From a virus: a stretch of DNA of 41,630 nt. The notes beneath the pieces were generated by a model. That model worked only from the letters and a program-made list of their open reading frames with translations. It searched no databases and was not told the DNA's origin. Shown here piece by piece: positions 1 to 41,586 of the stretch. Positions within the stretch are counted from its first letter, which is position 1; the number at the start of each line of letters is the position of its first letter. The stretch lies in the UHGV virus genome UHGV-1355554. One strand, 5' to 3'. The position numbers and the translations under genes were made by a program.

Positions 1-338
1 ACTTTTTTTAAATCTTCAATACCATTTTTTTGTTTATATCTATGTGTATACTTATATATGTTCGCTTTGTAGAAACCGCGTAGCTCCTCATATGTTAGTA
101 GGTCATCTTCTAACACGTCAAATAGTTGTTTACCTGAAGTGGTTTTGTAACGTTTGGTGTTTTCTAATTCTTCAGATTCAATTACACTGCCAGTAATATG
201 TGAACCTTTAATTATTTTACCAATTGTATTTTCTAATTCTTCAGACTCAGCACCTATAATTTCATATACTTCGCCAATCGTTAAGGTGGGTGTTCCATCA
301 TTGTCTATACATCTAACTTTGTCTCCAACTTTAAACAT
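1..338 (-). CDS. Hypothetical protein, 5' part only (gene runs off the left edge). N-terminal KOW/SH3-like motif and an internal ESEELENT duplication.
   Basis: Minus-strand ATG at 338 preceded by RBS AGAGAGGA. Open reverse frame continues to position 1. Missed by the ORF track because no stop lies in the window. The plus-strand ORF 154-381 is antisense to it. Confidence 0.5.
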   Translation of the reverse strand, partial: MFKVGDKVRCIDNDGTPTLTIGEVYEIIGAESEELENTIGKIIKGSHITGSVIESEELENTKRYKTTSGKQLFDVLEDDLLTYEELRGFYKANIYKYTHRYKQKNGIEDLKK

Positions 339-369
339 TATATCAAATCCTCTCTTTGTTTATATATTT

Positions 370-399
370 ATAATATCATAGAGTATCTTACTTGTCAAC
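370..399 (-). promoter_or_regulatory. Sigma-A-like promoter (TTGACA, 18-bp spacer, TATTAT) for the leftmost gene
   Basis: Minus-strand TTGACA at 394-399 and TATTAT at 370-375, about 30 bp upstream of the RBS. Confidence 0.35.
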
Positions 400-460
400 A
401 CAAAACTTTTATTTTATGCTATAATAAATTATAGGGATTCCTCCTCCCTCCTCTCGTTAA

Positions 461-1702: not shown

Positions 1703-3007
1703 TTATTTTACACTCTCCTCTATCATTTCATTGGTAAAATCTTTTCCATTTGTAACTGTCTCAAAGATCTTTTTCTCAATTTGTGTATCTGGAATAATGT
1801 GGATAAAATTAGGTGTACACTCCTGACCAAATCTATCAACTCTAGCTTTTGCCTGAATATAGTCTGTAGAACTTAATGGCATAGAATTGAATACGCATAC
1901 ACTAGCTATTTTCAAGCTATTGATGCCTGTACTAGCACTTTTATATTGGGCTAAAACCACTCCATTATCATAGTCTTTGAAATTAGTCAAATCTTTATTA
2001 TTTCCATTATAACTACTATATGGTCTTTTTAGTTTATTCAACAGTTCTGAAATCATATAAAACTCTGCGTTGTAATTATAAAATATGACCACTCGTTCAC
2101 CACTGTATTCTTCTAGTACTGCTTGTAAACGCTCAAACGGTTCTTTAGACACCTGTTTGTGTACACCTTTAAGAAAACCATGTGATATTTGACGTAGGGC
2201 GTTAAATAATTTACTACTATTGTCTAGCTCAATAATATTATCTAGGTCGTCTTTGTACATTCTGACTTTCTTTAATTTATTATAAAACGCAGGCTTTTTG
2301 GTCTTATAATAAAAATCTTGTGGCATATATGGTTTATCACGTTCATACCTAACACTTACTTTATCAATCATTTGTTTCAATAAGTGCTCGTTGCGGTAAC
2401 CAATAATCTGCATGAATCTAGCGGATCCCATTTGTTGCATGCGTTCAGTTACAAATAATTCATAGAACTCTTTTTTTGGCTTGCGGAACACATTTAACAT
2501 GTGAAGTTGACTATAATAGTTTTCTAGTTTTCCGTTTGCTACTGGTGTTGCAGTTAATAATCTAACGTGAGTGGTCTTTTTACATAAATTCATCATGAAT
2601 TTTGTTACCTTTGATTTTGGTACTGACACCTTATGGCTTTCGTCAATTATGATGTATGTGTTTTTATCAACCCAGTTTGTCAATTCAGTTAAGCGCCAAC
2701 TACTCTCAAAGCTAATGGCTACCCTGTCTGACTCTGACAATAGTTGTTTATTTTTAGTAGTTCCTTTATTTAAAGGGGTAATGGTAATTCCCATTAATTG
2801 ACCATCTTCTGCAAAGTCAGCTACTTTTGGAGCTAGACAAACCACTAGCAATTTACTACAGCCACTTTTCAAGTAGGCTCCAAGTGCTGAGTACGTTTTT
2901 CCAGTTCCAGCGGATGATAAGTCAAAGTTCTTTTTATCAGATAATTCAATAGCTTCTACTTGATGTGGAAGAAGTTCTACTTTACCTATTTTATTCTGCA
3001 TATTCAA
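1703..3007 (-). CDS. SF2 (DEAD/DEAH-like, SNF2-type) DNA helicase
   Basis: Walker A SSAGTGKTYSA, motif II IIIDESH, and C-terminal helicase motifs (QAKARVDRFGQ). Confidence 0.75.
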   Translation of the reverse strand: MNMQNKIGKVELLPHQVEAIELSDKKNFDLSSAGTGKTYSALGAYLKSGCSKLLVVCLAPKVADFAEDGQLMGITITPLNKGTTKNKQLLSESDRVAISFESSWRLTELTNWVDKNTYIIIDESHKVSVPKSKVTKFMMNLCKKTTHVRLLTATPVANGKLENYYSQLHMLNVFRKPKKEFYELFVTERMQQMGSARFMQIIGYRNEHLLKQMIDKVSVRYERDKPYMPQDFYYKTKKPAFYNKLKKVRMYKDDLDNIIELDNSSKLFNALRQISHGFLKGVHKQVSKEPFERLQAVLEEYSGERVVIFYNYNAEFYMISELLNKLKRPYSSYNGNNKDLTNFKDYDNGVVLAQYKSASTGINSLKIASVCVFNSMPLSSTDYIQAKARVDRFGQECTPNFIHIIPDTQIEKKIFETVTNGKDFTNEMIEESVK

Positions 3008-3680
3008 AAGTGTAGCCTCCTGTTTGCTTTTGCTCGTTGTTTAAACATCGTCTCAGCCCTGTTCTACGCACATTAAGCTTTTCAGCTGTTGCGGTTTGAT
3101 TGTGACTATATATCACCTCTCCTGTTTCAATATTAGTAGCTTTGAATAATCTCCCACCTAATGTTTTAGATATTTTATCTCGTGTATCAACTGATAGTTT
3201 TCTACCACGGAGTGCCTCGCTTTTAGCCTTAATGTGTTCAGATGACTGAGGTCTACCTTTTAATTTTGACTCATGCATTAAGTAGTGATTTCTAAGACCT
3301 TTACTGATATTACTCCTCTTTTCTAATGTCCAATTTATATTTTTACTACGTACACTCTGTTGTTTTTTAAATTCTTTGGAATGTTTCATACCTCTTGCTG
3401 GACAGTCACCTCCTACAGATATGTTATATCCATATTGCTGGTCTGTAGTATTGTATTTATTAATCAACTTAATCTCTAGTAGACACGCCTCCGTTTTTGT
3501 TAATCCTTCTTTTATAATAAAGTGATTGAAATTTTCCCACCCATATTTTAATATTGAGTTTTTAAAATGCTTACTACTATAATTTTTTCCATTATTCCAT
3601 CTCTTCAGTGGATTTTGTGACGTTATTCCAAAATATTTTTTATTGTTTACTCTGTTAACATGTAAATATACTATATACAT
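2991..3680 (-). CDS. GIY-YIG homing endonuclease
   Basis: N-terminal YIVYLH...KKYFGITS (GIY-YIG motif). NUMOD-like basic repeats. C-terminal ...TGGYTFEYAE tail shared with the HNH homing-endonuclease DNA-binding domains in this window. Confidence 0.8.
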   Translation of the reverse strand: MYIVYLHVNRVNNKKYFGITSQNPLKRWNNGKNYSSKHFKNSILKYGWENFNHFIIKEGLTKTEACLLEIKLINKYNTTDQQYGYNISVGGDCPARGMKHSKEFKKQQSVRSKNINWTLEKRSNISKGLRNHYLMHESKLKGRPQSSEHIKAKSEALRGRKLSVDTRDKISKTLGGRLFKATNIETGEVIYSHNQTATAEKLNVRRTGLRRCLNNEQKQTGGYTFEYAE

Positions 3681-4690: not shown

Positions 4691-4909
4691 TTAAACTTTT
4701 TCTGAGGTCGTAATTGAAACAATGTTATTCACGGTTAGAAGTACCTCGTATTTATATGTTCCCATTCCAATTAAGTCTTTTTTGTGTTGAATATAGATTG
4801 TTTCTTCTCCTAACTCTATTGCACGTTTAAATAGAGTAATCAGCTCTCTATCCGTTTCTACCACAAAGGGTTCTGTTGAATTAGTTGTGTAAATCAAATA
4901 TTTTTTCAT
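4691..4909 (-). CDS. Hypothetical protein (72 aa)
   Basis: ORF whose stop overlaps the start of the next gene. Confidence 0.45.
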   Translation of the reverse strand: MKKYLIYTTNSTEPFVVETDRELITLFKRAIELGEETIYIQHKKDLIGMGTYKYEVLLTVNNIVSITTSEKV

Positions 4910-6501
4910 TATTTTTCCTCCACGTCATTGAAAATATTTACATACTCTGTCCCTGCTAGTGCATTCATTAAATATGGTCTGATTGACTCATTGTCTCCGT
5001 TACGTGCAATTTTTAGACCAGTTAGTACGCGGGCTTTACTTGTCCGTTTTTCTTCAAAGCCTTGTTTGAGTAATAGCTCTTTCATTGTACGCCAGTTCAT
5101 TGATTTATTAATATTATTCTCTTTCGTGTACACGTTAAAGATATTCTTCAATAGTGTTAGATTAACAGTTCCTTCTTCATCTTCTACAATAACAGGTACT
5201 TCACTCAAAAACTCTTTAGATGGATCGTTTGATTCAATGTAAGCTTTCTTGAAGGCAATCATATCTTCTGTTTCTGTGAATGGGTTTTCACCATTTGTGC
5301 CTGCGTCTAAAATCTTTTTGAATTGTTGAATGCAGAACCATGCAAATTTACCTAGTTGCTCTTTTGACTCACGTTCTTCACGTTGTTTGTTGAACTCATT
5401 GATTCGTTCACGTGCTTCTGGTGTGTCAAGATTGGTATTAAAGTTTAGAATCAGAATACGTCTATACCATCCATTTGTGCGGTCGTTAAATGCAGGTAGT
5501 TCATTCATTGAGAACATTAACTTAGCATAGTTGGTGAAACTGAAAGCGTCTTTACCTTTTTTCTCAGCGTGAACAGCGTCAAGACCTCCTGAAAGTTTTT
5601 TCAGTGTTTCCGTACCTTTTACAAAGTTGGCACTTGAATCCGCTTCAAAGTTTAGTAATTTATGGTGCAATGAAGCTTTGTCAAAACGATTGTTTTTATC
5701 TGCTAAGCTGTCTAGTCCAACTGCTGAGCTATTTTTGAAACCAATCAATTTGTTCATGATAAATCCACCTACATATGATTTACCATTTGATCCATTACCC
5801 AACAGATATAAGATAGATTGATATTTGTATTCTCTATAATACATGTAACCAATGTATTCATATAATGTCTGCGCTTGGTCTTTTAATAGATAGTCAATCC
5901 ATTGTTTGGCTAGTAGTTCGTCTGTCTCATCTGTTTTAATTAAAGGATATGGGAGTTGAAGTGTGTGGTAATCTTCTAATTTGGTTTCTCTGATATCATT
6001 TGTTTTAAAGTCATATGTGCCATTCTCAAAAGCAATAATATTTGGGTTAGGGTTGTCACCTAGTGGGGCATGCTCACCACGTGTCATGGAGCGATTAGCC
6101 AACTCAGGAGCTAATTTCTTCATTTCTTTACGTATCTCATTCCCAAACTCTGGATTTCTGAATTGTGGTGTGAATTTTGGCGCTAAAATATTTTCAAAGT
6201 ACCAATCAGAATATTTGTAACTACCTAGATTAATTTCAGCCCAAATGCGTGTGTCAGCGTTGTATACATATGGCGCGTTTAAATTAGGATGAGCGTACAC
6301 ATAAGCTAGTTGGTTAAATTTTTCAATAAATAATTCCTGTTGAATCTCAAATTTTGGCTGTGTACCGTCTTTACCACCGTAGTACATTCTTCCTACTTCT
6401 GAATTGAAGTCTACAAACTCCTCACTTGGAAAGTTTTTGTTTGACACTGGTAGTAATTCCTCAACTGGTGCTGAGTAATCTATTTTCGTTAGTTCATTCA
6501 T
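4909..6501 (-). CDS. D5-like primase C-terminal / SF3 helicase (phage-plasmid P4 primase type)
   Basis: Walker A LLGNGSNGKSY and Walker B region FSMNELP. Start taken at the internal ATG 6501 (MNELTKIDY...) preceded by AAGGGGGAA. The track's 6579 start would cover the gene's own promoter. Confidence 0.75.
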   Translation of the reverse strand: MNELTKIDYSAPVEELLPVSNKNFPSEEFVDFNSEVGRMYYGGKDGTQPKFEIQQELFIEKFNQLAYVYAHPNLNAPYVYNADTRIWAEINLGSYKYSDWYFENILAPKFTPQFRNPEFGNEIRKEMKKLAPELANRSMTRGEHAPLGDNPNPNIIAFENGTYDFKTNDIRETKLEDYHTLQLPYPLIKTDETDELLAKQWIDYLLKDQAQTLYEYIGYMYYREYKYQSILYLLGNGSNGKSYVGGFIMNKLIGFKNSSAVGLDSLADKNNRFDKASLHHKLLNFEADSSANFVKGTETLKKLSGGLDAVHAEKKGKDAFSFTNYAKLMFSMNELPAFNDRTNGWYRRILILNFNTNLDTPEARERINEFNKQREERESKEQLGKFAWFCIQQFKKILDAGTNGENPFTETEDMIAFKKAYIESNDPSKEFLSEVPVIVEDEEGTVNLTLLKNIFNVYTKENNINKSMNWRTMKELLLKQGFEEKRTSKARVLTGLKIARNGDNESIRPYLMNALAGTEYVNIFNDVEEK

Positions 6502-8209: not shown

Positions 8210-8497
8210 TTAGCCCTCCTTTTGTTTATGAGGTATATATTTTAAATTTTCTAATTTACAGTTAGCTTGATTACCATCAATATGTTCTAACTCATAGTTA
8301 TAAGGTGGGTTTTGTACATATGTTTGATAGACTAATTTATCAACTCTTACTGTGTGTGCTTTCTTGTTAGTATCATATATTTTTGTGTATATATTATTAC
8401 CAATCCATTTACGTCTAATAGGTTTGTTGTGTCTATTATATACAATACCTCCTTTAGTCACTTCATAATTACTGAACTCAATTATATTGAAAACCAT
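8210..8497 (-). CDS. Small HNH endonuclease (AP2-like N-part plus HNH)
   Basis: C-terminal YNYELEHIDGNQANCKLENLKYIP is an HNH motif. RBS AAGGAGG. Confidence 0.65.
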   Translation of the reverse strand: MVFNIIEFSNYEVTKGGIVYNRHNKPIRRKWIGNNIYTKIYDTNKKAHTVRVDKLVYQTYVQNPPYNYELEHIDGNQANCKLENLKYIPHKQKEG

Positions 8498-8539
8498 ATT
8501 TATTTCCTCCTTTTAATTTATAAACCAATTTTATCATAT

Positions 8540-8570
8540 ATTGAGGTAACGGTCAACTATTTAATTCAAG
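8540..8570 (-). promoter_or_regulatory. Leftward promoter (TTGACC-17-TAAAAT) for the 8497 operon
   Basis: Read on the minus strand as TTGACCGTTACCTCAATATATGATAAAAT. Confidence 0.4.
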
Positions 8571-8900
8571 TAGTGACAAAACAGTGACATTAATTTTGTC
8601 ACTGTTTTTTACAGTAAAAATACTATTATATCAACGTTTGTGAAACCAGTTTTAGCAAAATGACGCAATGACAAAAAATAATTTATTTAAGCCCATATAT
8701 CTATGTTACTACATTATAATGTAGTATTATAATTTATTTTTTTTAATATAATATATTTTGTCATTTTGTCATTATAAAAATAAGAATGTAGATATATCAA
8801 GTGATACAGCGTTTTTATGTGTTAAAATAAGTGACAAAACGATGACAAAAACAAGCGAATTAGTGACAAAATGACAATTTTAGGCTGATTTTTTGTCACT
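8571..8900. repeat. Iteron cluster: at least 10 copies of (G/A)TGACAAAA in both orientations, plus the hairpin CAGTGACA-TTAATTT-TGTCACTG followed by T6
   Basis: Copies at about 8574, 8585, 8595 (inverted), 8662, 8669, 8757 and 8765 (tandem inverted), 8831, 8842, 8863, 8872 and 8891 (inverted). Candidate origin or operator array. Confidence 0.6.
8707..8726. repeat. Perfect 20-bp palindrome TACTACATTATAATGTAGTA, followed by a roughly 35-bp pure A/T tract
   Basis: Reverse complement is identical. The adjacent TTATAATTTATTTTTTTTAATATAATATATTTTG resembles a DNA-unwinding element. Confidence 0.6.
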
Positions 8901-8937
8901 AATAACTGGTCTAATTAACTCACACAGTATCCCTTAT

Positions 8938-8949
8938 CTATGATATAAT
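8938..8949 (+). promoter_or_regulatory. Rightward extended -10 promoter TATGATATAAT
   Basis: About 25 nt upstream of the ATG at 8973. The same motif occurs at 10658 and on the minus strand near 38110. Confidence 0.4.
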
Positions 8950-8972
8950 AGAAACAAAGAGGAGGAGATATA

Positions 8973-9161
8973 ATGAAAGAAGTATTAACCACGATTTTAT
9001 CAATTATATTAAGTCTTTTGATTATCATTGGTTTCGGTTACATTGCTATCTATTTAGGTATGAAGTTACCATATCAATTATTTCAGCAAGGTGATTGGGG
9101 CTTTGCAATTGCACAACTGGTTATCGTATGGAGCTGGTTATTAGGAGGTAATCGCAAGTGA
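8973..9161 (+). CDS. Small membrane protein (62 aa, one or two TM segments)
   Basis: RBS AGAGGAGGAG. Hydrophobic sequence. Confidence 0.5.
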   Translation: MKEVLTTILSIILSLLIIIGFGYIAIYLGMKLPYQLFQQGDWGFAIAQLVIVWSWLLGGNRK

Positions 9162-9990: not shown

Positions 9991-10383
9991 ATGCCACAAC
10001 GTAAGTGTGCAGTGGCTTCGTGTCGCAACTATGTCACGCTACCTGAGCGCTACTGTGACGCACACAAAGGACACAACAACAGTCAATACAATAAGCATGT
10101 AAGATACAACGATGACAACAAGAAGTATAGTAACTTCTATCATTCAACACAATGGAGGAACGCACGTAAAGCCAAGCTAATGGAGCAACCACTCTGCGAG
10201 GTATGCTTGGCACAAGGCAAGTACACTAAGGCTGATATGATTCACCATATAATCGAATTAAGAAGTCCAAATGGATGGAAACATAGACTTGATTTAAATA
10301 ACTTAGAGTCAATCTGTTACGAGTGTCACAACAAGGAAGAACACAGTTACAGTTGGAAAAATAGAGGTAGGGAACAGCGCTAA
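9991..10383 (+). CDS. Terminase-associated HNH endonuclease
   Basis: N-terminal Cys4 ribbon. HNH core MIHHIIEL...N...CYECHNKEEH. Classic position upstream of the terminase small subunit. Confidence 0.8.
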   Translation: MPQRKCAVASCRNYVTLPERYCDAHKGHNNSQYNKHVRYNDDNKKYSNFYHSTQWRNARKAKLMEQPLCEVCLAQGKYTKADMIHHIIELRSPNGWKHRLDLNNLESICYECHNKEEHSYSWKNRGREQR

Positions 10384-10657
10384 ATCAACAACCGCACAGT
10401 CAAAATTATTTTTAGGGAGACCCAAAATGTTTTTACCCCCTACCTTTTTATAACGAATTAATCGCTGCCCCCTCTTCTTCGCACAAAAGTCCCAAAACCA
10501 ACTTTGAAAAACGTCCTTTTCCCTCGTAAAACGTAATAAAAAACTGGTTTCTTGTGTTGAAACACAAGGATTCACACTACATCTAGTATGCTATTTCCCT
10601 TTAACGAGTATTCCCCCAATAAACAAGATTGAAGCTGGTTTCTTTACACAAGATTCT
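10384..10657. other. Candidate cos/packaging-site region: non-coding, C-tract rich, with direct repeats
   Basis: C-tracts TTACCCCCCTACC, GCTGCCCCCTCTTC, TTCCCTCG and TATTCCCCCAAT. Repeats CTGGTTTCTT...ACACAAG (10544-10570 and 10634-10655), a CTTGTGTT-GA-AACACAAG palindrome and AAAACGT x2. Sits between the HNH and terminase genes. Confidence 0.3.
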
Positions 10658-10730
10658 TTTTATATGATATAATAAAACTATATAAGGGATTTTTTATTTA
10701 AATCAAAATTAACGTAAGGGAGGTAGAACA

Positions 10731-31704: not shown

Positions 31705-31740
31705 AATTTAAAGTGCTCAGAATGATCGTGAGAACATCAT
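31705..31740. repeat. Lysis-cassette boundary motif B: AATTTAAAGTGCTCAGAATGATCGTGAGAACATCAT
   Basis: Partner of 29962-29997. Overlaps the stop codon of the PnuC gene. Confidence 0.5.
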
Positions 31741-32438
31741 TTTTTATCATGATTAAACCAATTTGATACAGTGAAAGCAATAATATTATTAGCTAGGTAT
31801 AACGTATATGTGAAGAACAGTACCCAAACGGCATGACCATCAATAGCTGTTACTAACCATAATACAATGCTCATGATACCTTGTGTGAACCAGAAATAAT
31901 ACTGCGCTGAAAACTGGCGGACACATAGGAAAGCACCTGTAAATCCAATTGTAGCACTTAAAGCGTCAATAAACGGGCGTGGTGAACTTAAAACGATTGT
32001 ATCAAGCCCATACAATAAAGCAAAGGTTGCACTGAAAAATAATAGTGTTTGAAGTTTATGTTTTGTTTGTAATTTACGTGGGTTAAATACTTTCCATTTA
32101 CCTAAGATAATTGGAATATCCAACAACAAAATATAAGCTAGTTGCATTAAGATGTCACTATAGTTACCAGTAACCATTGCCACATAACACAGTAATAAAG
32201 CAGATACGAAGCCTAGAATACCATTAATTGGTTTACCTTCTGTAATAGCTAACGTACATGTAAATCCTAACATACCCGCAATTGTACTGGTGAATGATAA
32301 CAGTGTTAAGCCATCTTTAAATCCAATAAGGAATAAGAATAACAAACCAACCCCCAAAAGAATATAGCTTTGTTTATGCCACCCTTTAAATTGCTTTTTG
32401 TAATATTTATATGTTAATAATTGAGTAATGTTTTCCAT
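31737..32438 (-). CDS. PnuC-like nucleoside / nicotinamide-riboside transporter
   Basis: 233 aa, about 7 TM segments, Trp-rich C-terminal helices. Adjacent to the deoxynucleoside kinase gene. Confidence 0.6.
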   Translation of the reverse strand: MENITQLLTYKYYKKQFKGWHKQSYILLGVGLLFLFLIGFKDGLTLLSFTSTIAGMLGFTCTLAITEGKPINGILGFVSALLLCYVAMVTGNYSDILMQLAYILLLDIPIILGKWKVFNPRKLQTKHKLQTLLFFSATFALLYGLDTIVLSSPRPFIDALSATIGFTGAFLCVRQFSAQYYFWFTQGIMSIVLWLVTAIDGHAVWVLFFTYTLYLANNIIAFTVSNWFNHDKK

Positions 32439-33574: not shown

Positions 33575-35866
33575 TTAGTCAATGTAGTTTCTGACACTAG
33601 GCGTCTTGTATCCGAGTTTACTTCTTTTGGCATGTGCTTGCTCAATCCTCTCTTTCCACGTTGCACCAAACCACATTACTAGTAAATCCTCTACCTGGTT
33701 TATATAGTACTCTTTATCAATATCATCAAGAGTTATCCATCCTTCACCAATAGCTTCATTGTCAATGGCGTAATATTCAGGAGCATTAGGTAAACCTTTA
33801 GTGTATGAATCATCACCAACAATCGTTGTGCCTTCCTCTTCAATTACAGCTCCTCGTTTCACCTTGAATATTTCAACAGCTTTATTAGGGTCTTTTATTG
33901 CAAATGTACGGTTTACTTTTTGTGCTTTCTTTTCATTACCTTCACTATCACGTACAATAGTATCATCAAATGTCCAGCCAGTTTTAGTAATCATTTGGAA
34001 CTGACGTAGTTCGTCGCATTCATTGATAAACTCTTTATAGTCTTTACCAGCAACTACATAGTTAATGAATGCATTTGAAACAATTGCTTTAGATACTTTC
34101 AAACCATTTGTTAAACCAATAGCACCTTTAAACTTCACTTTTCCATCAGTTGTGACAGCCAAGTAATTATTTACATTGGCTTGATATATTTCTCTGAACG
34201 GATCATCATCTAATGTGTAACCTGTTCGTTTCATCCAATCATTTGCAATCTCATCAATGGCTTTTTCATCTTCTTCACTGAATGGAATATAATAATGTGC
34301 GTCTGTGTTTGATTGAATAATAGTAGCGTGGTCTTCAATCTTTTCTAGTAAATCCCACATGGCCATCTGTCCAGTAATACATACTAATAACCTCATGCGC
34401 GGATCATATAGTTTATTAAACTCAGCTCCCATTGCACCATATTTAGTATTTAGAGGTAGTTTGTAACCATTAATCAATAACTTAGTTGGAATCTGAACGC
34501 CTTTAATTTCAGTAAATTCTTTATTAGAATACTTAGCTTCCATCCGTTCATCTAATAACATTTGATAGATATGCCGCTTATCTTCTGGGATGTTTCTTGA
34601 TAAGTAGTCAAACAATACCATTGTATTTGGATACAACGAACCTACGTCACGTGCGTGGAAGTTTCCTACATGAATAAATGACTCTTTAGCTCCATGAATA
34701 CCACCTACTCCTAAAACCTCTGTTACGTCTCTACGTGGTACATCTAATGAAATGCTGGCATGTCCTTTTTCATTAGCTTCAAAATCATCTGTCATAAACG
34801 CCTGACGGATTGTCTCTGACTCAATTTCAAAACCTTCTGGCAGTTCATACTTGTCTAACTCGTCACCTCTATCAGGTGTTTTTTCAGCCCCTAATAATTC
34901 AGCAGTCAAGTTTGCGTTAGTCATTGAGAGTGCCATTTTATCTAAACCAAAATATAAGGCAATTGCAGCTTTAGCTACTAACATACCTATGTTTTGTTCA
35001 AAGCGTTTTTCCGTAGCTAACACGTCATTTTTACAATATAGCTCGTTCAATACTTGTTCTTCTTCAGTTAGTTCTCTATCTAAATCAAAGTCTACTTCAG
35101 TTTCTTTAATATTAATACCCATGAACGCACTATGTTCTTTCAAACTAAAACCCCTATTGTCTTGATACAAATCCATCCCAAACAGTGGTGTTTTCTTAGT
35201 ATCAAACATTTTATATACTAATGCTCTATCATCACTTTCAATAATCGCTTTTGACACATGAAATGGATTTTTACCTTGTAAATATGCACGCATGACATTG
35301 GAATCATATGAGTGTGAGTTATAACCAACAAATAATGAATCTCTATTCGCTAGATAGAACTTGCGTAACGCATCTAAATCATTATGAATAACTGTCCATT
35401 CTTTAGTGAAGTAATCTCTAAAGACAAATAAATTATCTTTTTTAAATACTTCAATATCATAAATATAAATTGTTTGGTTGGTTAGTGCCTCATTTGGTTT
35501 CTCAGGTAAATCTTCAAGCACTGCTCCTTTTTGATTTATGGTTACATTTGGGAAACCATTGTTGTATTTTAGAGTGATGTTTAGTTGCTGTCCAACTTCT
35601 ATATTTTCCCACGTTTTCCAATCTTGTTTACGAAACTTCATAATATAGATAGTAGCATCTCTACCATCTTTTAAACTTCTAAGCTTAATCTCACGCATTT
35701 TTTTACCTTTTGCAGATAAACGTTCCTCTGATTTAATAACTACAACTTGATGGACACCTTCTACTAGCGGATCAAAACTCTTGGCATTGCCTGCAAGTGC
35801 TGCGAATATTTCTAATAGCTTACTTGCTAACTTTTCAGCACCTTTGAATTCTGCAATATTTTTCAT
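33575..35866 (-). CDS. Family-B DNA polymerase with 3'-5' exonuclease domain
   Basis: Exo I YIYDIEV, Exo II YNSHSYDSNVM, Exo III YCKNDVLATEK. Pol motif A DVGSLYPN, motif B-like KLLINGYKLPLNTKYG, motif C region SNTDAHYY. Confidence 0.8.
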   Translation of the reverse strand: MKNIAEFKGAEKLASKLLEIFAALAGNAKSFDPLVEGVHQVVVIKSEERLSAKGKKMREIKLRSLKDGRDATIYIMKFRKQDWKTWENIEVGQQLNITLKYNNGFPNVTINQKGAVLEDLPEKPNEALTNQTIYIYDIEVFKKDNLFVFRDYFTKEWTVIHNDLDALRKFYLANRDSLFVGYNSHSYDSNVMRAYLQGKNPFHVSKAIIESDDRALVYKMFDTKKTPLFGMDLYQDNRGFSLKEHSAFMGINIKETEVDFDLDRELTEEEQVLNELYCKNDVLATEKRFEQNIGMLVAKAAIALYFGLDKMALSMTNANLTAELLGAEKTPDRGDELDKYELPEGFEIESETIRQAFMTDDFEANEKGHASISLDVPRRDVTEVLGVGGIHGAKESFIHVGNFHARDVGSLYPNTMVLFDYLSRNIPEDKRHIYQMLLDERMEAKYSNKEFTEIKGVQIPTKLLINGYKLPLNTKYGAMGAEFNKLYDPRMRLLVCITGQMAMWDLLEKIEDHATIIQSNTDAHYYIPFSEEDEKAIDEIANDWMKRTGYTLDDDPFREIYQANVNNYLAVTTDGKVKFKGAIGLTNGLKVSKAIVSNAFINYVVAGKDYKEFINECDELRQFQMITKTGWTFDDTIVRDSEGNEKKAQKVNRTFAIKDPNKAVEIFKVKRGAVIEEEGTTIVGDDSYTKGLPNAPEYYAIDNEAIGEGWITLDDIDKEYYINQVEDLLVMWFGATWKERIEQAHAKRSKLGYKTPSVRNYID

Positions 35867-36770: not shown

Positions 36771-37319
36771 TTAATCTACTCCTTTATATTTGAATGTGTA
36801 TCCACCAGTTTGTCTGCGTCTACCTTTTAGAACTGATGTAATATTTCCTGAATTAAGTCCCAATTGTCTAGTGCATTCGTTAGTACTATTGAACTTCGTA
36901 GACTCGCCAGTCGTTAGATTAGTTGCAATGATTGGAATACTATTCGTTTTAGCCATTCTTTCATTACGTGTTCCGTGATTAATATTTTCCTTAGTAGTCA
37001 TCCATTCTAAATTTGGAACTTTATTGTTAGTTTTATTCTCGTCTATATGATTAACATCTGACTTATTTTCCGGGTTTGGTATGAATGCTTGAGCTACTAG
37101 ACGATGGATTCTCTTAGTAGATCCAATATTGTTTTTATATAAGTTAACTACTAGATAGCCAGTGATATGTTTACTTCCCTTCAAAATTCTATCAGTATAT
37201 GAACTCTTAACCCTCCCAAGAGCACTAACCTGATACAACCCTTCATATCCTTCAATATCTTTCCAAATCTCTTCCATTTTTATCTTCCTCCTCTTTATCT
37301 TACAAGTTAATTTTAACAT
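36771..37319 (-). CDS. HNH homing endonuclease (NUMOD4 plus HNH_3)
   Basis: [53 protein letters not shown]...NLEW...GGYTFKYKG. Confidence 0.85.
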   Translation of the reverse strand: MLKLTCKIKRRKIKMEEIWKDIEGYEGLYQVSALGRVKSSYTDRILKGSKHITGYLVVNLYKNNIGSTKRIHRLVAQAFIPNPENKSDVNHIDENKTNNKVPNLEWMTTKENINHGTRNERMAKTNSIPIIATNLTTGESTKFNSTNECTRQLGLNSGNITSVLKGRRRQTGGYTFKYKGVD

Positions 37320-39861: not shown

Positions 39862-40617
39862 TCATCTTACTAACCAGTTGTCAACATCTTTTTGAGTTAT
39901 TTTTCCTTTTGAACGTTTAATTAACCCCTCAAAAGTGCGATATGTTTCTGACTGGTGTAGTTCTACATTAATCATATCAGGTTTTCCAAATTTGTCAACA
40001 AATAACTCTCTTTCTGTTGTACTCAAGTGACGGTAACTACCATTACTAAACACGTCATATCCAGTGTGCGTTTTAGTTGATTCGTAAAATTCAATGACTT
40101 TAGGGTCATAATTAGCTTCAAGCAATAGTATATCAATCTTTATATCATTTTCCAAAAGATACTTTTCATAGTCTGTCATTGTACTTAAATCAGTGGCAAA
40201 CAGAGTGTTTTGGTTAGGGGTCTCCATAATGAAACCATGTGTTTCTGCATACTCTTCTCCAGCTCCATGATAATTCTGAAGTGTTGTGAACTTAACTTCA
40301 CCAATTTGAAATTGGAAGTCCTCTTTGAATATAAGGTCTAATTGTGGTAAGCTACGTTTTTTCAAGTTGTCTTGTACTTCTTGATTACCTAATATTTGAA
40401 TATGTGGAAAGTTTTCTCTAATCTTTTTATATGTTGTATATACAAGATGATCTTGGTGGCGATGAGTTAACAAAATAAATTGCTTGTTAAATAAATAGGG
40501 CTCAATGTGTTTATATGGCTTCCCTATGTCAATTAAGAATCCTAAATTATCATAATAGATAGAGGCGCAGTTTCCTTTACTTCCTGTATAGTGAATATCA
40601 AAACTAAATTCGTTCAA
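39862..40617 (-). CDS. MBL-fold metallo-hydrolase
   Basis: [11 protein letters not shown] (HxHxDH). TTG start 8 nt after GGAGG is assumed. The track's start at 40632 overlaps the HNH gene. Confidence 0.65.
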
Positions 40618-41125
40618 TGTGCCAACCTCCAACTGTTTTACGTTTACCAGATATTACATCTGATACATGTCCGCTTGATAAACCATATTTTAAACAAAAT
40701 TCTTTCTGAGAATTATATTTTTCTTTGATGTTACTTTTAGTACAAATGATAGGTTTACTATTTGTTATACACATTCTTTTTATTGCAGTGCCATGATTTC
40801 TATTCTCTTTATTTGTCATCCACTCTAGGTTGTATACCATGTTATTAGTCTTATCCTCATCAATATGGTTTACCTGTGGTTTATTTTCAGGGTTTGCTAT
40901 GAAAGTTTCTGCTACTAGACGGTGAATTGTCTTAGTAGATTGAATACCATTTTTAGATAATCCAACTCTTAAATATCCTTTCCTATTTACTGATGGTTTC
41001 AAAATCCTATCCGTAGTATTGGTATTGTTTACAGTATGCCGTTTCAAAGATTTAACTCTCCCTAAATTACTTACTTGATATCTACCTTCATATCCTTCAA
41101 TATCTTTCCAAACTTCTTCACTCAT
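40604..41125 (-). CDS. HNH homing endonuclease (NUMOD4 plus HNH_3)
   Basis: [54 protein letters not shown]...NLEW. Confidence 0.85.
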
Positions 41126-41586
41126 TTATTTCTATCCTCCCATCTAAACCCTTCCAATTCCCATAATTCTTTACCAAGTTCCGTTGCTGTCTTCCATTTA
41201 TCTTTATCTATTGCATTGTTAATTTCAACAATCAGAGCATGTCGTTTTGGCTCTACTTTCTTTCTAAAAGGACGTGCTACACGTTCTACCCCTTCTTTTG
41301 GATTGATGGCGTAACCAATGTTGGTATAGTGACTATTTTGTACGTTGCCATCTTTAAAATATAAATATCCTAGATTATGCTCATTTTTAACAAACATATC
41401 TGCCACTAATTGAGAGATATAGAACTTACGTGACTTCTTATGTGACCCATGAAGAACCACGTACATCTTTCCATTCTTTTGGTCAACTAGTTCCGTTTCA
41501 TATCGGTCTTTGTCTAAATGAAACACATGACCCTCATCTGTTATGGCGTACATATCGTACGGCTCGTTCAATGGTTCAAATCTCAT
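41122..41586 (-). CDS. HNH_3-like homing-endonuclease homolog with a degenerate catalytic motif
   Basis: [10 protein letters not shown] / YVVLHGS...[11 protein letters not shown] align with the NUMOD4/HNH_3 copies. The expected NHIDxxxxNN is [15 protein letters not shown], so the His is lost. Confidence 0.5.

Follow-up and report, generated by a model that had tools for sequence, protein, structure and literature searches.

A predicted dyad-symmetric iteron origin and its candidate helicase initiator in a virulent Enterococcus faecium siphophage

Architecture of the divergent gap

The window analysed here, UHGV-1355554, is the complete 41.6-kb genome (41,630 nucleotides) of a virulent cohesive-end (cos) siphophage of Enterococcus faecium, and its sole divergent non-coding region carries an array of short repeats (iterons) that we describe as a predicted origin of replication. 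Open reading frame (ORF) maps place this region at 8498-8972 (475 bp), with leftward replication genes from 8497 and rightward genes from 8973. The leftward arm runs from 8497 to 1 and then from 41586 to 31737. Among its products are several endonucleases of the HNH and GIY-YIG families, the D5-like 'primase' discussed below, an SNF2 helicase (1703-3001), and a DNA polymerase (33575-35866). The arm also contains a separate minus-strand primase gene (885-1625), assigned Prim-Pol and PriCT_1 domains by Pfam and PHROGs and hereafter called PrimPol. The rightward arm opens with five small ORFs and an HNH gene, after which come the genes for terminase, structural proteins, and lysis. The genes immediately flanking the gap encode an HNH endonuclease and small ORFs of no assigned function. 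The nearest records are vb_GEC_Ef_S_9, SSBHU, the KEN18-22 phages, Aramis, dArtagnan, IME-EFm5, and IME-EFm1, with a DNA identity of 80-91% around the repeat gap.

The exact 9-mer RTGACAAAA is present in nine copies within 8573-8899 and in one copy elsewhere in the genome, at 36512, within the first codons of a gene. A preliminary description of this region had reported a cluster of at least ten copies and proposed a genome-wide count as a check of enrichment. The cluster is real and the word is not evenly spread, though the number of exact copies is nine. Relaxing the word to its core, RTGACR, gives 12 sites in the 475-bp gap versus 0.84 expected, with 73 occurrences in the remaining 41 kb (Poisson P = 1e-10). 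Likewise, the word TGACAAAA is found 13 times genome-wide versus 4.8 expected, and nine of the 13 are clustered in the gap. An unbiased scan for 7-mer clusters returned no other cluster in the window beyond those of low complexity, and none of the other non-coding gaps of the genome holds more than one RTGACR.

The repeats are arranged symmetrically about the middle of the gap. The inner left pair (8660-8676, plus strand) consists of ATGACG at 8660-8665 and ATGACAAAA at 8668-8676, placed 8 bp apart and directed toward the centre. It is mirrored by the inner right pair on the minus strand (8756-8772), two copies of ATGACAAAA at 8756-8764 and 8764-8772 with the same 8-bp spacing, which is invariant in an alignment of the seven phages that share the window's repeat word. 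The inner sites at 8660/8668 (plus) and 8759/8767 (minus) mirror each other about position 8716, at the centre (8716.5) of a perfect 20-bp palindrome, TACTACATTATAATGTAGTA, with the structure TACTACAT-TATA-ATGTAGTA (8707-8726). Together, these elements form a dyad-symmetric unit of about 113 bp (8660-8772) that reads iteron pair, A/T run, palindrome, A/T run, iteron pair.

Two further groups lie outside this unit. The left outer group (8573-8602) contains GTGACAAAA at 8573-8581 (plus), GTGACA at 8584-8589 (plus), and GTGACAAAA at 8594-8602 (minus). The right outer group (8831-8899) contains GTGACAAAA at 8831, ATGACAAAA at 8842, GTGACAAAA at 8863, and ATGACA at 8871, all on the plus strand, and GTGACAAAA at 8891-8899 on the minus strand; here, 8859-8871 and 8891-8903 form a perfect inverted repeat of 13 nt. 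The hairpin followed by six T residues that had been noted earlier is present on the left and is longer than first described, with arms AAAACAGTGACA (8578-8589) and TGTCACTGTTTT (8597-8608) forming a 12-bp stem closed by a 7-nt loop. As single-stranded DNA it has a folding energy of -10.8 kcal/mol (z = -4.8). However, the hairpin (8578-8608) is composed of three repeat copies and is no independent feature.

The centre of the gap is also the point at which the genome's duplex is weakest. The pure A/T run at 8725-8759 measures 35 nt, in agreement with the earlier estimate, and is the longest in the genome, the runner-up being 23 nt. Of all 50-bp duplexes in the genome, the segment 8709-8758 has the lowest stability, at -45.9 kcal/mol versus a mean of -62.1 (standard deviation 4.0), that is, about four standard deviations below. 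The two overlap, and we regard 8709-8759 as a candidate DNA-unwinding element. The 12 RTGACR sites, with opposed pairs on both sides of the A/T run and of the least stable duplex, fit the definition of origin layout given for the Staphylococcus aureus pathogenicity islands (SaPIs; PMC9371898).

A further motif, GAAACCAGT (8642-8650, plus strand), is located just left of the inner left pair. Its degenerate form RARACCAGT occurs eight times in the genome versus 1.6 expected, at 8642-8650, at 10543-10551, and at six coding sites. A copy of GAGACCAGT or GAAACCAGT is found just left of the inner iteron pair in related gaps with any iteron word, namely those of types A and A' and of contig L028 as defined below (L001-L011 included). 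In relatives, related ACTGGT copies also adjoin the leftward promoter at its -35 and occur upstream of the rightward one.

Conservation of the gap and co-variation of its repeats with a helicase

A gap of 450-625 bp is retained at the same position in all relatives examined, and it persists in about 35 related phage genomes, with a repeat word that differs among them. We refer to genomes with RTGACAAAA as type A, to those with RTGACR and mixed flanks as type A', and to IME-EFm1 and LG62 as type B. The comparison with orthologous regions that had been proposed earlier also bears on the repeats themselves. Among seven type-A phages, 80 of 97 iteron columns (82%) are invariant versus 118 of 254 spacer columns (46%), the latter being those between the two promoters (Fisher P = 4e-10). 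Judged by this alignment, the repeats are under purifying selection.

The central features persist as well. Each relative's gap has a 50-mer of -44 to -49 kcal/mol near its middle, and most hold a mid-gap palindrome of variable sequence. Examples are TACTACATTATAATGTAGTA, as in the window, ATATGC-N6-GCATAT, TATATGTATATATACATATA, TCTATATA-N7-TATATAGA, and TGGTATATACCA. Because its sequence varies from gap to gap, this argues that selection acts on having a palindrome rather than on its letters.

The preliminary description saw no obvious initiator gene in the window. A candidate does exist: the minus-strand gene at 4909-6501, which encodes a superfamily 3 (SF3) helicase with D5_N and DUF5906 domains (Pfam). 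Relatives annotate this protein as 'DNA primase' and its homologues are labelled 'P4 family primase' in databases, but Pfam finds no primase domain in it. Its only sequence match in the PDB is 7OLA, the SaPI5 protein PriRep5 (phmmer E = 4e-10). The AlphaFold2 model, with a mean predicted local distance difference test score (pLDDT) of 81, also has 7OLA as its best Foldseek match (E = 2e-18; template modelling (TM) score 0.56-0.73), and the alignments are longest (423-440 columns) to those 7OLA chains in which the C-terminal domain is built. Residues 412-498 are predicted to follow the order H-H-E-H-H-E-E, a pattern that would fit a winged helix. No initiator of the Rep_3, RepA_N, or lambda-O type was found among the left-arm genes with PHROGs or in the subset scanned with Pfam.

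The helicase is the sole protein that tracks the repeats. In a forward comparison, the 41 proteins of the window were searched against the genomes of nine relatives and, in the reverse, 48 IME-EFm1 proteins were used; only the helicase follows repeat type in both. PrimPol, the SNF2 helicase, the DNA polymerase, and the small ORFs, including one downstream of the helicase, do not track iteron type. In seven GenBank relatives of types A and A', the helicase is 97-98% identical to that of the window (tblastn), versus 29% in the two type-B phages. The latter have no TGACAAA and a single RTGACR, which is the chance level, and carry instead eight to nine GGTAC[AC] and six TTGTGT[AC]CC sites (GGTACAC/GTGTMCC; GGTACACAAAA-type). 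The gaps of DELF1 and Bp29 are unmatched by BLAST, yet these phages have an A-type helicase together with TGAC-core sites. There are no fixed helicase differences between types A and A', and we therefore treat the two as one specificity.

Metagenomic contigs extend this pattern. In 15 IMG/VR contigs that retain all or part of the upstream gap, the helicase is 96-99% identical, and all have RTGACR clusters 1.3-3.3 kb upstream of it, with 8-13 sites in complete gaps and six in two contigs that begin inside the gap. Metagenome contig L028 encodes a helicase of 74% identity. Its gap contains about nine RTGTAGT/ACTACAY sites, arranged in the same opposed two-plus-two fashion, with TGAC found only at the promoter -35. 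TGTC[A/T]-type sites are retained in contigs L029 and L031, whose helicases are 83% and 80% identical, respectively. The identity of PrimPol to that of the window is 83% in L028 versus 74% in L029 and 61% in L031, and other replication proteins are also closer in L028. The helicases diverge outside the ATPase core (residues 201-360, 95-100% identical to P0007), in the N- and C-terminal regions. Contig L053, whose helicase shares 87% identity with that of type B, has GGTTCAT repeats in addition to retained GTACAC sites. In IME-EF4, a phage of another genus with a 31% identical helicase, eight copies of AAAAGTGTAGACA surround an A/T centre in the equivalent gap, so that its allele pairing is GTGTAGACA with the 31% helicase. 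Two further helicases, P0008 (58%) and P0009 (57%), gave no test, as their contigs end before the divergent gap.

On the strength of this co-variation, we propose that each helicase allele has a cognate iteron specificity. In the window the helicase gene starts 2 kb from the gap, with six small genes in between, and in the window and other genomes of types A and A' the distance is 1.3-4 kb. These intervening small genes are highly mosaic, and none of about 33 type A/A' genomes is a helicase-iteron recombinant. The helicase adjoins the gap, one to three small genes away, in type B, L028, and L053 (L013, 38650-40329; L014, 36070-37749; L028, 8001-9593; L053, 2902-4617), and it is close downstream of the gap in IME-EFm1, LG62, and L028. 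Helicase and predicted origin appear to move as a cassette.

Several observations concern the palindrome and hairpins of these gaps. The palindrome of the window is an inverted pair of TACTACAT, which is the iteron word (ACTACAY/RTGTAGT) of the L028 phage (gap 7125-7573). The window-type helicase has no need of the TACTACAT word, because BUCT630 and dArtagnan pair that helicase with a different palindrome. The hairpin element ATCCCTTGGGAGAGTAAGGAT of relatives is absent from the window. Another conserved hairpin, ATCCCTTG(G/T)GAGAGTAAGGAT, occurs in one to two copies per gap in type A', in type B, in L028, L029, and L031, and even in IME-EF4 (the gaps that contain it include L005, L008-L012, L022, and L024). 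Neither the window nor any other type-A phage carries it. The first half of this hairpin resembles ATCCCTTATC, located just upstream of the rightward -10.

Three independent assemblies end or begin inside the gap: vB_EhiS_268 (CAJDKB010000002.1) and IMG/VR contigs L034 (28-131) and L046 (70-347). This is above chance for 1% of the genome; the probable cause is an assembly artefact at the A/T tract and long imperfect palindrome.

A predicted origin and the alternatives

The preliminary description left the region as either an origin or an operator array, and it is the origin that the evidence favours, with the operator array the weaker part of that pair. We put the probability at roughly 70% that 8560-8910 is a replication origin with dyad-symmetric iterons, onto which the phage's own D5/Rep-like helicase is loaded. 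This reading is favoured because opposed iterons surround the weakest duplex of the genome, the repeats are selected, and they co-vary with one replication protein.

A mechanism for initiation can be envisaged from these features. The SF3 helicase would act as a self-loading initiator that recognizes RTGACR(AAA) iterons, most probably through its C-terminal winged-helix-like domain. It would assemble on both sides of the A/T tract (8709-8759) as a double hexamer, melt the tract, and unwind outward, after which PrimPol (885-1625) would prime and the DNA polymerase (33575-35866) would extend. The outer iterons, in inverted and direct pairs, lie toward each flanking promoter. The analysis itself shows the anatomy, the enrichment, the conservation, the co-variation, and the fold of the helicase; the steps of binding, melting, double-hexamer loading, and DNA reading by a particular helicase domain are inferred, as is any role of the promoter-like sites inside the gap (8800..8771 and 8633..8625).

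The closest parallel to the way this element would work is found in the SaPIs. SaPI Reps are self-loading initiator-helicases whose C-terminal winged helix binds 6-12 penta- or hexanucleotide iterons; they are origin-specific, their origins have an A/T-rich centre flanked by two or more oppositely oriented iterons on each side, and primase is encoded by a separate gene (PMC9371898). Similarly, the phage helicase has SaPI5 PriRep5 as its closest relative in both sequence and structure, there is a separate PrimPol-type primase, and the 12 short iterons flank an A/T-rich centre with at least two opposed sites per side and a word that changes with the helicase allele. There are differences, however. 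The phage origin would lie between divergent promoters, 2 kb upstream of the helicase gene, whereas the SaPI origin is immediately downstream of rep. The phage iterons carry an A-tract extension that makes them 9-mers, and the palindrome sits exactly on the dyad axis. Moreover, the carrier is not a satellite; it is a virulent cos siphophage of 41.6 kb that encodes its own DNA polymerase. We therefore call the element SaPI-like in its working and not a strict member of the family, because its position differs and binding is predicted.

By position, the closest parallel is the lactococcal Ceduovirus, virulent cos siphophages of a lactic-acid bacterium with a non-coding region between divergent blocks. 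In Ceduovirus, the origins shown to support plasmid replication are situated where the early and late gene blocks diverge, and several unrelated origin types occur among otherwise similar phages (c2, bIL67, and 923; PMC7150918). The c2-type origins function without phage proteins and need the non-coding PE1 transcript (PMC7150918). Unrelated types of predicted origin among otherwise similar phages are also seen here, but in the present group the repeat type tracks a phage helicase.

Resemblances extend to eukaryotic viruses and to satellite phage P4. Simian virus 40 (SV40) and other polyomaviruses, and the papillomaviruses, have SF3 initiators (large T antigen and E1), a dyad-symmetric origin with an A/T tract, and divergent transcription units, and the SV40 initiator also represses the neighbouring promoter. 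An SF3 protein as proposed initiator, opposed short repeats, and divergent promoters are the shared features. This resemblance to the SV40-type origins is functional only, as neither the DNA-binding domain nor the repeat words show detectable homology and the host belongs to another domain of life. In P4, the alpha primase-helicase reads octamer-type iterons at ori and crr via its C-terminal domain. The present protein is likewise a D5/P4-family helicase in which a C-terminal domain is predicted to read iterons. However, alpha fuses primase and helicase and needs crr, whereas here the primase is separate and there is one repeat cluster. The element is thus of a familiar kind, an iteron and A/T-rich origin that would be read by an element-encoded initiator, and one not yet described in this phage group. 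The searchable literature yielded no description of an origin for virulent E. faecium phages such as IME-EFm1, IME-EFm5, Aramis, and their relatives.

Some results weigh against an origin read by this helicase. The co-variation draws on a small number of independent events, namely type B, L028, L053 with its partial change, and IME-EF4 from another genus. Where the helicase stands beside the gap, as in type B and L028, a single recombination could have shifted both with no functional link. KEN21 has only four strict RTGACR sites, and the candidate origin lies 2 kb upstream of the helicase gene, unlike the immediately downstream origin of the SaPIs. The C-terminal winged helix is suggestive but statistically insecure; a model of this domain by itself (pLDDT 74) has no Foldseek match at E <= 1e-3, and the match list consists mostly of winged-helix regulators. 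The outer inverted pairs near both promoters would suit a regulator too. Finally, the cumulative GC-skew minimum at 8-9 kb is uninformative as support because it falls in the same place as the switch of coding strand.

One rival explanation, which we consider unlikely, is that the repeats are a multi-site operator array for a phage regulator of the divergent promoters, an early/late or autoregulatory switch with no origin. The repeats do lie between two promoter-like sites, with the inverted pairs at 8573-8602 and 8863-8899 placed 16-17 bp upstream of each -35, and the swapping of the repeat word among relatives recalls the operators of immunity modules. However, none of the sites overlaps a core promoter, most are 60-190 bp away, and the densest symmetric pairs are 110-190 bp from both promoters, around the A/T tract. 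Pfam detects no helix-turn-helix or other regulator domain in the small ORFs checked from both arms, and an 'XRE regulator' label on the gene beside the gap in Bp29 and DELF1 is without Pfam support. Nor does any small protein track the repeat type in either direction, as only the helicase does, and the promoter sequences are nearly identical across iteron types. It is somewhat less probable still that the region is an origin independent of the helicase, one that uses host factors or a priming transcript as in c2, with repeats that bind a host protein or shape the DNA. Its position matches the Ceduovirus origin, which needs no phage proteins and uses a promoter-driven transcript (PMC7150918); promoter-like sites at 8800..8771 and at 8633..8625 (TGATATAAT) point into the A/T tract; and both the GAGACCAGT motif and the central palindrome persist across iteron types. 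Against this, phages of one host species, E. faecium, differ wholly in their repeat words, the word changes in step with the helicase allele, and conservation of the internal promoter-like sites is only partial.

It is very improbable that the region serves in packaging, acts as a terminator or insulator, or merely reflects the chance composition of an A/T-rich spacer. The gap is indeed A/T-rich with hairpin-capable repeats, one of which is followed by a T run (8605-8610), but the cos site lies 1.5 kb to the right (10463-10471), a terminator scan of the gap returned no match, and chance is ruled out by enrichment, conservation, and co-variation. Rfam at gathering thresholds likewise gave no match in the whole window. 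A doubtful but conceivable elaboration of the helicase-read origin is that the gap combines an origin and a transcriptional switch, with the helicase and iterons forming an exchangeable cassette and the palindrome, because it matches the iteron word of the L028-type helicase, a possible site of a second specificity. In such an arrangement the helicase would load at the inner dyad and would also occupy the outer inverted pairs by both promoters. Its build-up would then, by analogy with SV40 T antigen at its origin, tie the start of replication to the repression or activation of both divergent units, and the specificity cassette would be swapped among co-infecting enterococcal phages.

If the predicted helicase-read origin is correct, its main value would be as a data set on how D5/Rep-type SF3 helicases read DNA, since it would provide a natural series of helicases (identities of 100, 83, 80, 74, 31, and 29%) that are matched to distinct iteron words within a near-constant genomic frame. 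It would also supply a cis element and a trans factor for building replicons or for engineering these phages, several of which are under development for therapy against vancomycin-resistant strains. The annotation 'DNA primase' would be corrected to that of a predicted helicase-initiator, which lacks a primase domain. Phage origins act as phage-resistance decoys in dairy bacteria, and a cloned origin might serve in the same way here.

Promoters, cos site and neighbouring genes

The gap is bounded by two promoter-like sequences. On the left, a sigma-70-like promoter, TTGACC-17-TG-n-TAAAAT, is located on the minus strand at 8528-8556, a little further left than the 8540-8570 given in the preliminary description. 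Its assignment is by consensus match only, and the -35 of relatives is TTGACA. On the right, the promoter previously placed at 8938 corresponds to an extended -10, TGATATAAT, at 8941-8949 (plus strand), followed by a ribosome-binding site at 8958-8967 and an ATG at 8973. Around this promoter, about 70 bp hardly vary among all the relatives, whichever iteron type they carry. The outer iteron groups end 16-17 bp short of the -35 positions. The earlier 'early' and 'late' labels for the two promoters are provisional at most. The rightward promoter serves five small ORFs and the HNH gene ending just before the cos site, and the packaging and structural genes are preceded by their own promoter-like site at 10643-10673.

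The extended -10 TGATATAAT occurs three times, at 8941-8949, at 10665-10673, and, inverted, at 8625-8633. The copy at 10665-10673 is upstream of the packaging and structural genes and has TTTACA 19 bp upstream; the three copies together suggest a shared promoter type. The copy on the minus strand (8625-8633) lies inside the iteron region and may be an internal leftward promoter. Another promoter-like sequence, TTGATA-18-TATAAT (8771-8800, minus strand), has 11 of 12 matches and reads leftward into the A/T tract, with a -35 that is partly conserved. It may activate the origin by transcription. We also considered the repeats as -35 boxes of stacked promoters and rejected this, as only the copy at 8772 has a correctly spaced -10-like hexamer.

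The cos site (10443-10484) was located by comparison with IME-EFm1, whose experimentally mapped terminal 20-mer, ATTAATTCGTTATAAAAAGG, matches 10443-10462 on the minus strand. Next to this match come CGCTGCCCC (10463-10471) and, beyond it, CTCTTCTTCGCAC. The reverse complement of CGCTGCCCC, GGGGCAGCG, is one base off the 9-nt 3' overhang of IME-EFm1, GGGTCAGCG. In the linear genome as packaged, the iteron region thus lies about 1.5 kb from the right end.

Homing-type HNH and GIY-YIG genes are numerous (8210-8497, 9991-10383, 2991-3680, 36771-37277, 40604-41125, and 41122-41586). The endonuclease gene at 8210-8497 adjoins the iteron gap and is found in only some relatives, and the left arm is most mosaic at the genes adjoining the gap. 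At the convergent end of the leftward arm, 31737-32438 encodes a PnuC-like nicotinamide mononucleotide transporter. It has a tblastn match in none of the nine relatives compared and looks like a phage-specific accessory gene. A strong sigma-70-like leftward promoter candidate is present at about 330-400 (minus strand), where TTGACA and a -10-like TATTAT fall in an A/T-rich part of the leftward arm, and may be a middle promoter.

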